63,855 bases of DNA from positions 1-63,855 of the forward strand of contig VGJY01000004.1 in assembly GCA_016867235.1 (NCBI GenBank). Direction: 5' to 3'. This DNA is from Candidatus Tanganyikabacteria bacterium. GTDB lineage: Bacteria > Cyanobacteriota > Sericytochromatia > S15B-MN24 > VGJW01. Made by a program: the position numbers and the translations under genes. The notes under the pieces are model-generated. The model searched no databases and was not told the origin of the DNA. It worked only from the letters and a program-made list of their open reading frames with translations. Below are positions 13,418 through 15,205 of this stretch, piece by piece (the first letter of the stretch is position 1; each line of letters begins with the position of its first letter).

Positions 13418-15205
13418 ATGGACCCGATTGCTGGCGTCTCCGCGCGTCCCAAGAGCCCTCCGACCGGAAGGCTGAAGCCGCCGGCCGGCGACCGGCAGCC
13501 TGCTGGCGGCCGGTACCGCCCAGGAGGGGGCGGCCTTTCGCAGGCCAGGTCCCCGGGGCCGACGGAGTCAGCGCGGCGTTCCCTGGCGCTCCCGGACCCC
13601 ACCGTGGCCGAAATGGCTTCGGCACGCGATCTGCCGGCACTGCCGGCACCCGGTCAGGTCTTGAAGCGGCGCGTCCAGCAGTTGCTTCCCGAGGCCGACT
13701 TCAAGTCGGAGCCCGGCGCGCGCTGGTCGAAGGCCGACCTTTCGGAACTCCTGCGGGTCGTGAAGGCGATGTCCCCCCAGGATCGCAAGGCCCTGGGCAA
13801 CGTGACGTTCGAGCGGACCAAGGAGATAGGGGGCGCACACGGGCAGGAGGAGTTCGGCGAGATCGACTTCCGGACGCGCGACGGAAAGCCCGCGCCGGTG
13901 ATCCGCCTGGCCAACCGCTCGTCGCAAGAGCGATCGCTGGGGGCGACCGCGGCTCACGAAATCGGGCATGCCATACAGGGCAGGGGCTTCTGATAGCGGC
14001 GCTCAAATGACCTGGCGCCTATCGGACGCAGGCACGGAGGCCTGCGCCACCGATGCAACGGGTGGGGCCGGCCTCCGTGCCGGCCGCGATGTCGGAGCGA
14101 AGTCATCAGAGCCGCGCTATGAGATCCCAGCGAGATTCGCGAGTTCGGCAAGCTTTCGCACTGGGTGCGCCCCGGCGAGCCTCCGACGCTGGTCAACGGC
14201 TACGCCCCGAATTTCCGGAACCGGAACTTCGAGGGCGGCGACAGCGCGCTCAATCCGGAGAATTTCGTCTCCCGCTATGCCAGGTCCTCGGCCGCCGAGG
14301 ACTTCGCCGAGTCGTATCGCGCGTATCTCAAGCGGCCTGCCGAACTGATGAATGCCTCCCCCGAGAAGTTCCTCTTCATCAACGCGAAATCGCGAAAGTA
14401 TCCACCGGATGAAATCCGGTCGATCGCGGTCGAAGCAGGGGTGGACTTGCCGCTCGCGATGGCGTCGTTGCGCGGCGCTGGCCTGCGCGATCATACCCTC
14501 GACCTGATCGAGAAGCGAAACGGCCTGGAGAAGGCAGGGGCTGCCGGCACCGCGGCGGGCGACGTGCTGGAGTCCTTGCCGGCGCACGCGGGCGATCCGG
14601 GCTTCGCCGCCAGGTTGATGGCCGATCCCGAAGACGCCCTGGGCGCCGAGACCTGGGACCGCCTCACGGCGCGCGAGCGCCAGCTCCTCCAGGATCCGGA
14701 GTACACGGGCAAACTCCTGGCAGCCGCGGCGGCCAACAAGGCGGCTCCGGCCGACAAGGTCACGGCCGGCGACGTCAAGGGCTGGCGAGCGTACTTGAAG
14801 GACCTCCTCCGCGAGGGGCCTGAAGGCGACCACAGCGCCGGCGATCTCCTGCGCAAGCTCCACAAGCCCGAGTACTGGGATCAACTCTCGCCGCGCATGC
14901 GAGACCTGTTCGACTCCAAGGCCGGGAAGGACTTCTTCAAGGCGATGGCCAACGACAAGAACTTCGTGGACATCACGAACCTGGCATGGAAGGAGCGTCA
15001 GGGCCACGACGTCCGGGCCGTCCACCGCTGGAAGAACGTGGACGCCTACCTGGATCGCCTCGGGCCGGCCGACGTGGAAGAACTCGCCCGCATGATCGAC
15101 CGCGGACTGACCAACCGGGAAGCTAAGCTGATGTCCAGGGCCAACGCGCAGTTGGCCACGACGGGCGAGTTCCCGCGCGCCGACGGCAACCCGCCGGGCA
15201 TGTGA
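13418..15205 (+). pseudogene. lethal-factor-like zincin paralog P1, split in frame by a MITE
   Basis: ORF 13418-13993 ends ...AAHEIGHAIQGRGF-TGA. The same reading frame resumes after TGA 14120-14122 with DPSEIREFGKLSHWVRPGEPPTLVNGY...AEDFAESYRAYL...SPEKFLFIN...NPPGM. The joined sequence is colinear with the paralogs at 19669, 21627 and 23386. Confidence 0.8.
13991..14122 (+). mobile_element. MITE/REP-like element, copy 2, inserted inside a coding region
   Basis: Near-identical to 2720-2851. Begins TGATAGCGGCGCTCAAATGAC and ends GTCATCAGAGCCGCGCTATGA. Confidence 0.85.

Follow-up and report, generated by a model that had tools for sequence, protein, structure and literature searches.

A nonsense mutation probably made the landing site of a MITE in an M34-like metallopeptidase pseudogene of Candidatus Tanganyikabacteria

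Background

When a premature stop codon and a mobile element coincide at a single codon of a gene, one may ask which of the two disabled it. This question is raised by a 63,855-nucleotide stretch of contig VGJY01000004.1 (GCA_016867235.1; hereafter the window) from Candidatus Tanganyikabacteria, a lineage proposed from Lake Tanganyika metagenome-assembled genomes (MAGs; PMC8245535). The genome is probably that of a lake-derived, non-photosynthetic relative of Cyanobacteria (Sericytochromatia / Ca. Tanganyikabacteria). Here the fourth member of a family of predicted HExxH metallopeptidases, whose three other members in the window form an intact tandem array, is broken by a 129-bp insert carrying a miniature inverted-repeat transposable element (MITE). 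Comparison of the gene with its paralogs, of the element with its other copies and of the locus with its counterparts in related genomes suggests that it is a young pseudogene of a redundant paralog, in which a nonsense mutation came first, as we consider probable, and the MITE was a secondary hit at the C-TGA-G motif newly made by that mutation. The element would then probably be a consequence of the gene's death and not its cause.

The interrupted gene and its conserved tryptophan column

The upstream open reading frame (ORF) of the interrupted gene (13418-13993, + strand) encodes a protein that ends in ...HEIGHAIQGRGF (...AAHEIGHAIQGRGF), ahead of a TGA at 13991-13993. In the same frame this triplet is followed by TAG (13994-13996), 40 open codons and a second TGA (14120-14122), past which the frame reads DPSEIREFGKLSHWVRPGEPP... 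and stays open up to ...NPPGM-TGA at 15205. The interrupted gene hence contains three in-frame stops, namely the tandem TGA-TAG and the final TGA. The reference for what has been lost is provided by the tandem paralogs (ORFs 19669-21492, 21627-23381 and 23386-25143, all on the + strand), which show 34-42% identity in a tblastn search with the joined protein. At the site in question they read GKGKWDSNSVREFGKLSHW, GGGRWDASMLREFSKFSHW and GGGRWDAGEIREFGKLSQW, exactly as quoted by the first-pass annotation, which had been made from the letters of the window and its ORFs. A protein alignment places the premature TGA precisely in a Trp column, with no change in length once the 129 bp are removed. 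This column lies eight residues past HEIGH and is occupied by Trp in all close homologs, including the three paralogs and the MAG homolog P0002 (motif HE[IL]GHxVxGxG[RK]W[DN]); more distant family members display Phe, Leu or Tyr, and it would accordingly be described as a conserved aromatic/hydrophobic position that is not absolutely invariant. These results bear out the claims of the first-pass annotation that the gene is a fourth zincin paralog, that it is interrupted at the conserved Trp after HEIGH, and that the insert is a frame-preserving, MITE-type element of 129 bp.

Beyond the lesion at this codon and the insert we found no defect in the gene: all the family-invariant residues are kept, and the GC content at third codon positions (GC3) of its two parts (Table 1) compares with 0.86-0.88 in the intact paralogs. 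The N-terminal part, which starts 1 nt past the stop of an upstream GH3-family gene, retains HEIGH (13955-13969), and the C-terminal part carries the downstream Glu box EDFAESY (14297-14317) along with the ...PPGM end typical of the family, so that, as had been stated earlier, an N-terminal fragment would keep HExxH and lose the Glu box. Gene callers annotate only 14165-15205 of the C-terminal half (P0001, 346 aa), beginning at a GTG that had been proposed as a possible restart; no Shine-Dalgarno-like sequence is present upstream of this GTG. A scan of 13300-15400 for promoters and terminators recovered none within or beside the element, nor any promoter-like site. We also considered that TGA might be read as Trp and rejected this, given that TGA terminates 26 of the 44 genes, being the commonest genuine stop, and closes the conserved ...PGM ends of the interrupted gene itself and of paralog 2. 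Relative to its intact homologs the gene therefore bears what appears to be a disabling lesion, i.e. TGA at the Trp codon and an insert adding TAG and a second TGA, and is best regarded as a pseudogene.

Table 1. Coordinates of the interrupted gene, its intact paralogs and the MITE copies in the window
Feature	Positions	Strand	Remarks
N-terminal part of the fourth zincin paralog	13418..13990	+	191 codons; GC3 0.83
Premature TGA at the conserved Trp position; also left copy of the target-site duplication	13991..13993	+	Contigs from two samples agree
MITE body (copy A), 126 bp	13994..14119	+	First triplet TAG, in the gene's reading frame
Right copy of the target-site duplication (TGA), in the gene's frame	14120..14122	+	13818-bp Logan contig agrees
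C-terminal part of the fourth paralog	14123..15205	+	360 codons and TGA stop; GC3 0.86
Intact paralogs, tandem array of three	19669..25143	+	607, 584 and 585 aa; reference for the interrupted gene
MITE copy B, TCA/TCA	2720..2851 (body 2723-2848)	+	125/126 identical to copy A
MITE copy C, older	6396..6526 (body 6399-6524)	-	84% identity; one end degenerate
Cluster of degenerate nested/truncated MITE copies	63561..63855	.	Nested/truncated copies at 63564-63735

Anatomy and copies of the element

The insert comprises a 126-bp hairpin element and a 3-bp target-site duplication (TSD), which together make 129 bp, a multiple of three. The element has the ends TAGCGGCGCTC... (TAGCGGCGCTCAAATGACC...), with imperfect terminal inverted repeats (TIRs) that match at 20 of the first 30 positions and outer 31-nt arms that are 74% complementary; an inner 24-nt palindrome (14028-14051 and 14061-14084) forms a hairpin. 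The whole is predicted to fold into one long hairpin of -80.1 kcal/mol (z = -5.95), a stability reached by none of 200 shuffles, and contains no ORF other than read-through frames. Copy B is situated 10 nt past the stop of an MMPL-family gene (682-2709), and the triplets that flank the older copy C are the TGA stops of two convergent genes (5199-6398 on the + strand and 6524-7738 on the - strand). The cluster at the 3' end of the window starts at the TGA stop (63561-63563) of the gene at 63051-63563, and a further copy beginning at 63836 runs off the window end (63836-63855).

Scanning JGI metagenome contigs with a 28-nt core of the element recovered at least five contigs bearing it, all with Ga0194xxx identifiers, two of which hold complete copies (L007 and L004). 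These are identical at 126 of 126 positions to copy B and to each other, and copy A differs from all three by one private substitution, at 14092. In Logan contigs of one public lake-water metagenome run (X1) the summed depth over the element reaches ~28,000 as opposed to ~14.5 in the flanks of the interrupted gene (~1900x), spread over 366 contigs; the element is thus found at no fewer than five sites of the window, in at least five JGI contigs and in 366 Logan contigs of this run. Because three complete copies are identical, the fourth is one base off and the repeat depth is so high, the family appears to be active currently or to have been so very recently. With its short length and lack of transposase coding capacity, TIRs, a TSD of fixed length and many dispersed copies, the element displays the features by which MITEs are recognized. 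Database searches returned no family match in Rfam, with only sub-threshold hairpin similarity, of the kind expected by chance, to plant miRNA families; no match of the 28-mer core in the GTDB species representatives or in viral contigs; and no match of the full element among the PLSDB plasmids. Likewise, no autonomous element with matching TIRs was found in the window, where ~30 genes were scanned for a transposase, or in the fetched loci.

A three-nucleotide target and the order of the two lesions

The triplets flanking the element are direct and identical in all four complete young copies (TGA/TGA once and TCA/TCA three times): copy A is flanked as c/TGA...TGA/g, copy B and the copy in L004 as c/TCA...TCA/g, and that in L007 as c/TCA...TCA/c. 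We had considered the triplet as a part of the inverted repeat and rejected this, as one flank would then read TGA and the opposite flank TCA; as direct repeats in every one of the four copies, the triplets constitute a TSD. With the ends known singly (L003, L005, L006, copy C and the 3' cluster) included, all 8 of 8 left ends have C at position -1, and 6 of 7 right ends have G at position +1. These patterns point to C-T(G/C)A-G as the approximate preferred target and show the junction to be a simple 3-bp duplication.

Cutting out the element along with one repeat leaves TTC-TGA-GAT wherever the cut is placed, and the site must therefore have read C-TGA-G prior to the insertion. The intact paralogs have TGG followed by GAT or GAC, preceded by CGC in two of them and by AAG in the third. 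Hence, starting from TGG-GAY with a C before it, as in two of the three, a single G-to-A transition suffices to make both the stop and the target motif. Since the target needs the A, it follows that the nonsense change would have preceded the insertion. The genome is 69% GC, and C-T(G/C)A-G occurs only 38 times in the 63.9-kb window; in the reconstructed 1659-bp gene its sole occurrence coincides with the insertion point. Being the only such motif in the gene, this codon is exactly where an insertion into the nonsense-mutated gene would be expected, and the apparent coincidence of two lesions at one position goes away.

We accordingly propose a course of events in which a G-to-A transition first converted the conserved Trp codon from TGG to TGA, which would have killed the gene and created C-TGA-G, and in which the 126-bp hairpin MITE then landed on this motif and duplicated the TGA, the latter step being visible in the anatomy of the site. 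The downstream frame would have been kept thanks to the length of 129 bp, but TGA-TAG at the start of the insert and TGA at its end would block a full-length protein. The first-pass annotation had left a choice between an extra G-to-A change and a junction that is not a simple duplication: the former is retained, placed before the insertion, and the latter is dropped in favor of the same simple 3-bp TSD as in the other copies.

Independent evidence for the insert

To compare the locus with independent assemblies we used Logan contigs from public lake-water metagenome runs over 13400-14800. Two contigs of run X1, of 7017 bp (depth 14.1) and 13818 bp (depth 14.9; also locus L001), cover 13400-14017 and 14097-14800, respectively, and a 432-bp contig of a second run, X2, covers 13588-14019, all three with zero differences. 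Each junction, with its TGA triplet, thus recurs in independent assemblies, on the left in two samples and on the right in one. Owing to the very high copy number of the element the contigs end within it, so that the junctions are confirmed singly and not across the 129 bp.

The fourth paralog in related genomes

In a 95-kb contig from a related genome (L008; ENA ERZ13693045) the gene order is GH3, Eco57I-like methyltransferase, three tandem paralogs, polyprenyl synthase, SpoIIE and metallophosphoesterase. In the window a 4.7-kb block (13418-18175) splits this order between GH3 and the methyltransferase; besides the fourth paralog, this block codes for a Rieske/VanA_C oxygenase and a Na+/H+ exchanger, and it includes a segment (17610-18174) in which no clear gene can be made out. 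L008 has only ~120 bp between the two genes (8095-8214), and its uninterrupted order there means that it has no fourth copy at that position. Seen from the two genomes together, the GH3-methyltransferase interval is an indel polymorphism of a whole gene block.

A second relative (L009; GCA_040960315.1, JBFOMO010011731.1) displays the order GH3, a 208-aa gene 1 nt later (P0027; 9182-9808) and then the Rieske gene. At the DNA level 6 bp stand in place of window positions 13871-15031, amounting to an in-frame deletion of ~342 codons, so that P0027 consists of the N-terminal 150 residues of the fourth paralog fused in frame to its C-terminal 58 (...FGEIDFKT / KNVDAYLDRLGPADVE...PPGM), and is devoid of the HExxH motif, the Glu box and the MITE site. 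The syntenic ortholog thus appears to have been inactivated independently in a second lineage. The first-pass annotation had suggested looking for an empty site in orthologs and metagenomes; the orthologous locus was found, with the deletion running over the site in L009 and the gene absent from L008, and no empty site was recovered. In the comparison of the window with L009, the ratio of nonsynonymous to synonymous substitution rates (dN/dS) is 0.29 for the whole retained N-terminal part, 0.20 for its conserved portion and 0.19 for the C-terminal part, and among the neighboring genes 0.19 for GH3 and ~0.12 for two others, at a dS of ~0.9-1.3. Such low values imply purifying selection for most of the divergence, and thus that both lesions are recent. 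This agrees with the intact GC3, the retention of all invariant residues and the single private substitution in MITE copy A, and upholds the earlier claim that the event was recent. P0027 may represent a very recent deletion, or alternatively a mini-protein that is still under selection. The core deletion in L009 and the absence of a fourth copy from L008 support the view that the fourth paralog is dispensable.

A lineage-restricted family with a predicted M34-like fold

A first, word-indexed homolog search missed even the paralogs in the window, returning only the gene's own fragment and one MAG protein of 38% identity. An exhaustive HMMER profile search of 1.84 billion representative proteins recovered 368 family members at E <= 1e-3, with only 24 at E <= 1e-30, and all the named ones are labelled Candidatus Sericytochromatia or Candidatus Tanganyikabacteria. 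In Pfam the best matches, to 'putative zinc-binding metallopeptidase' models (Peptidase_Mx, 20.5 bits with a cutoff of 27; Peptidase_Mx1, 17.6 bits with a cutoff of 25.6), fall short of the cutoffs, and these proteins lack a significant profile match to a curated peptidase family. An AlphaFold2 model of paralog 3, built from a 19-sequence alignment, has a mean predicted local distance difference test score (pLDDT) of 84.8. Foldseek searches of the PDB with this model retrieved anthrax lethal factor as the top match (1pwu_A, E = 4e-4, probability 1.00; 4e-4 to 1e-3 for 1pwu/1j7n), followed by PPEP-1/Zmp1, PPEP-2 and PPEP-3 with target TM-scores of 0.51-0.56 (0.53-0.56 for the PPEP-1 chains 5a0s/6r52); these matches extend over the catalytic domain only, at 11-16% sequence identity. 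The zincin label of the first-pass annotation is therefore supported at the level of the fold, and goes beyond the Pfam metallopeptidase matches, which stay below threshold. Taken together, the model and the profile search support a lineage-restricted, M34-like HExxH metallopeptidase family with a predicted anthrax-lethal-factor/PPEP-1-like fold.

On the model the HExxH motif is located on a helix (168-181), and the 19 family members show no variation at its E and G and at least 90% conservation at each of its two His. The Trp that is interrupted in the fourth paralog maps to the loop after this helix, and ~70 residues downstream lies the conserved EDFAESY box, with an invariant D-x-A-E, which is a candidate for the box bearing the third zinc ligand. 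The break is hence predicted to split the catalytic domain at a point that separates the HExxH helix from the Glu box. Members of the family further share a disordered N-terminus, rich in Ala/Pro or Gly/Lys, and a conserved C-terminal ...G-P-x-x-P-G-M tail. Regarding gene contexts, the tandem triplet is followed in the window by polyprenyl synthase and SpoIIE-phosphatase genes, with the same synteny in L008 (10001-15899); a groundwater MAG (L002, 4295-6136) codes for a single family copy next to these same neighbors, and L010 (853-6181) has another locus of the family.

Alternative explanations

That the MITE struck an intact gene and killed it, with the TGA triplets arising later or through an imprecise junction, is in our estimate quite unlikely. 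Such a scenario draws on the lack of other decay in the gene, and would let one event, the insertion, account for the inactivation; but as TTC-TGA-GAT remains at any cut, a TGG target would require the same G-to-A change to have occurred twice, once per duplicate, and CTGGG is a misfit to the exact T(G/C)A duplication in a C...G context that is seen in the other complete copies. It is still harder to believe that the locus remains functional, be it as a split two-polypeptide enzyme with a C-terminal fragment made from GTG 14165, by readthrough of the stops or by ribosomal bypass of the hairpin. The intact halves with their coding-like GC3, the frame-preserving insert with its very stable hairpin and the constraint on the retained parts of the L009 ortholog would be compatible with this, but they are outweighed by the three in-frame stops with the tandem TGA-TAG among them, the want of matching take-off and landing codons, the GTG lacking a Shine-Dalgarno-like sequence, the use of TGA as a normal stop (including at the PGM ends mentioned above), the predicted splitting of the catalytic domain by the break, with HExxH helix and Glu box on opposite sides, and the relatives that have deleted the catalytic core or do not have the gene. 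The first-pass annotation had itself raised the prospect that the 132-bp stretch of element and flanking triplets might be an assembly artefact, i.e. a repeat misplaced in the contig. The very high copy number of the element and the breaking of short-read contigs within it might encourage this idea; nevertheless, it can be given hardly any credence, as both unique-to-repeat junctions recur with zero differences in independent Logan contigs at a locus depth of ~14-15x, the left one again in a second sample, and no contig in four lake runs joins 13990 to 14123. Somewhat less improbable, though unlikely, is the possibility that the repeat is a structured repeat akin to REP (repetitive extragenic palindromic) sequences or BIMEs (bacterial interspersed mosaic elements), spread by other means such as a RAYT-type (REP-associated tyrosine transposase) enzyme, and not a transposase-mobilized MITE. 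The occurrence of its GC-rich core alone (34695-34744) and in tandem or nested form (63564-63735), the location of most copies just past genes and the failure to find a partner transposase would be in line with this, but the fixed 126-bp length, the TIRs and the exact 3-bp TSD at four independent loci are hallmarks of cut-and-paste DDE transposition and not of the way REP sequences spread.

The order that we favor, with the nonsense mutation preceding the MITE, has its own points to answer. It rests on the target rule of the element and not on a seen intermediate, and that rule is drawn from only ~9 insertion sites, one of which, copy C, has unlike flanking triplets (TGA and TCA), this copy being old and degenerate at one end. 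A search of metagenome and genome contig collections for the empty site (TTC-TGG-GAT or TTC-TGA-GAT) with a degenerate pattern encoding QGRGF-[W or stop]-DPSEIREFG recovered none, and the same holds for contigs from the four lake runs, which could miss rare empty alleles. Nor was an autonomous partner encountered in the plasmid collection, viral contigs or GTDB representatives (the last two searched with the core 28-mer only). Finally, the codon just before the premature stop (13988-13990) is TTC for Phe, a non-conservative replacement of the Arg or Lys found in every close family member (G-x-G-[RK]-W); this residue could be specific to the lineage, or constraint could already have relaxed.

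Association of the element with stop codons

The triplet flanking the element is an in-frame TGA of a long, high-GC3 ORF for copy A, on both sides of copy C, at 63561-63563, in L005 and probably in L003. By this count ~5 of 9 independent insertion sites fall on an in-frame TGA, compared to 2 of the 38 unoccupied C-T(G/C)A-G sites of the window that are stop codons. We tentatively raise the idea, while regarding it as doubtful, that the family homes preferentially to C-TGA-G stop codons, in which case any premature TGA in a suitable context would serve as a landing pad, making such MITEs markers of nonsense codons and not the cause of gene death. Under this hypothesis the TSD would regenerate the stop and the first triplet of the element, TAG, would add a second one, leaving an insertion at the end of a gene silent for the protein. 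Selection against intragenic insertions, combined with a target motif that can contain TGA, could explain much of the enrichment.

Further observations on the element and its surroundings

Two ORFs of 691 and 265 aa beside a MITE fragment in L003 were evaluated as the partner transposase and set aside, as they lack a Pfam match and belong to another repeat, with the end TCAGGATTGATCAC. This second repeat is inserted in the stems of MITE hairpins, always directly after ...GCC (window 63734-63838; L003 251-264; L005 109-121 and 1693-1706), and in L003 the 691-aa ORF comes after it, encoded on the opposite strand. This repeat may represent an unclassified insertion sequence (IS) that targets the MITE hairpin. 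The isolated GC-rich palindrome at 34695-34744, of which 28 nt match the inner hairpin of the MITE at 96%, stands alone between convergent genes for a WhiA-like (33850-34668) and an RsmE-like protein (34768-35499); the hairpin core may thus exist as a separate REP-like unit or relic as well.

When the element is taken together with its TSD (13991-14122), two of the six frames are fully open, one on each strand. At a C-T(G/C)A-G site with the codons NCT-GAG, the open frame of the + strand would give a 43-residue in-frame insert, and such a read-through insert would resemble the cases reported for the Rickettsia RPE or the 107-bp Correia element. Of the genes beside copy C, that at 5199-6398 codes for an EgtB-like protein combining FGE-sulfatase and DinB_2 domains, and that at 6524-7738 for an unannotated 404-aa protein. 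The former is adjacent to an EgtD-like (Methyltransf_33) gene (4171-6398 for the pair), which suggests an ergothioneine biosynthesis pair in this non-photosynthetic cyanobacterial relative.

Implications

For annotation, the ORFs 13418-13993 and 14165-15205 should be joined under a single pseudogene entry, and the 126-bp repeat should be masked as mobile DNA. More generally, the locus illustrates how the target of a transposon can arise by point mutation, leaving two lesions on one codon, and were the stop preference to prove true, it would offer a tidy example of a mobile element limiting harm to its host. It also documents a GC-rich MITE family that appears to have been active very recently in a sister lineage of Cyanobacteria that is non-photosynthetic and poorly known, and the repeated, seemingly independent loss of one member of an expanded and uncharacterized M34-like metalloprotease family, three tandem copies of which are kept in synteny across related genomes.

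Comparison with known systems

Bacterial MITEs, paralog pseudogenization and M34-like zincins are kinds that are already known, and a recent gene death is in itself ordinary. The reviewed bacterial MITEs include Correia/NEMIS in Neisseria, RUP in pneumococcus, RPE in Rickettsia and YPAL in Yersinia (PMC2229807). The element described here resembles these in being shorter than 200 bp and non-coding, in having TIRs, a TSD and an end-to-end stem-loop, and in occurring as many near-identical copies, mostly past genes and occasionally inside one. It differs in being GC-rich instead of AT-rich, in its 3-bp T(G/C)A duplication within a C...G context in place of TA, and in having neither a counterpart in Rfam, the GTDB species representatives (as judged by the core) and the plasmid and viral collections nor a partner IS among the sequences searched. 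A three-nucleotide target duplication is shared with the IS1031 group and with the eukaryotic PIF/Harbinger-Tourist elements, whose targets are of the TNA/TWA type, and the T(G/C)A duplication seen here fits the TNA type. Within the IS5 family, three-nucleotide target recognition is common to the IS1031 group (PMC2516522). As no transposase or matching TIRs were found for our element in the sequences searched, this similarity is a lead and not an assignment of membership.

With the M34 gluzincins of MEROPS (anthrax lethal factor and PPEP-1/Zmp1) the protein family shares an HExxH motif on a helix, a predicted catalytic-domain fold that matches 1pwu/1j7n and 5a0s/6r52, and, farther downstream, an acidic box (EDFAESY) from which the third zinc ligand could come. 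In contrast to them it possesses a disordered N-terminal region and a ~300-residue, all-helical C-terminal extension ending in ...PGM; its sequence identity to them is 11-16%, it has no significant Pfam match, and its peptidase activity is a predicted one. The fate of the fourth paralog is in keeping with the ordinary pseudogenization of redundant paralogs, inasmuch as one of several copies has suffered a point nonsense mutation and a hit by a mobile element, with independent lesions in its relatives. What sets it apart from an ordinary decay by nonsense followed by insertion is that here the target motif appears to owe its origin to the nonsense mutation itself, with both lesions thereby falling on a single codon.

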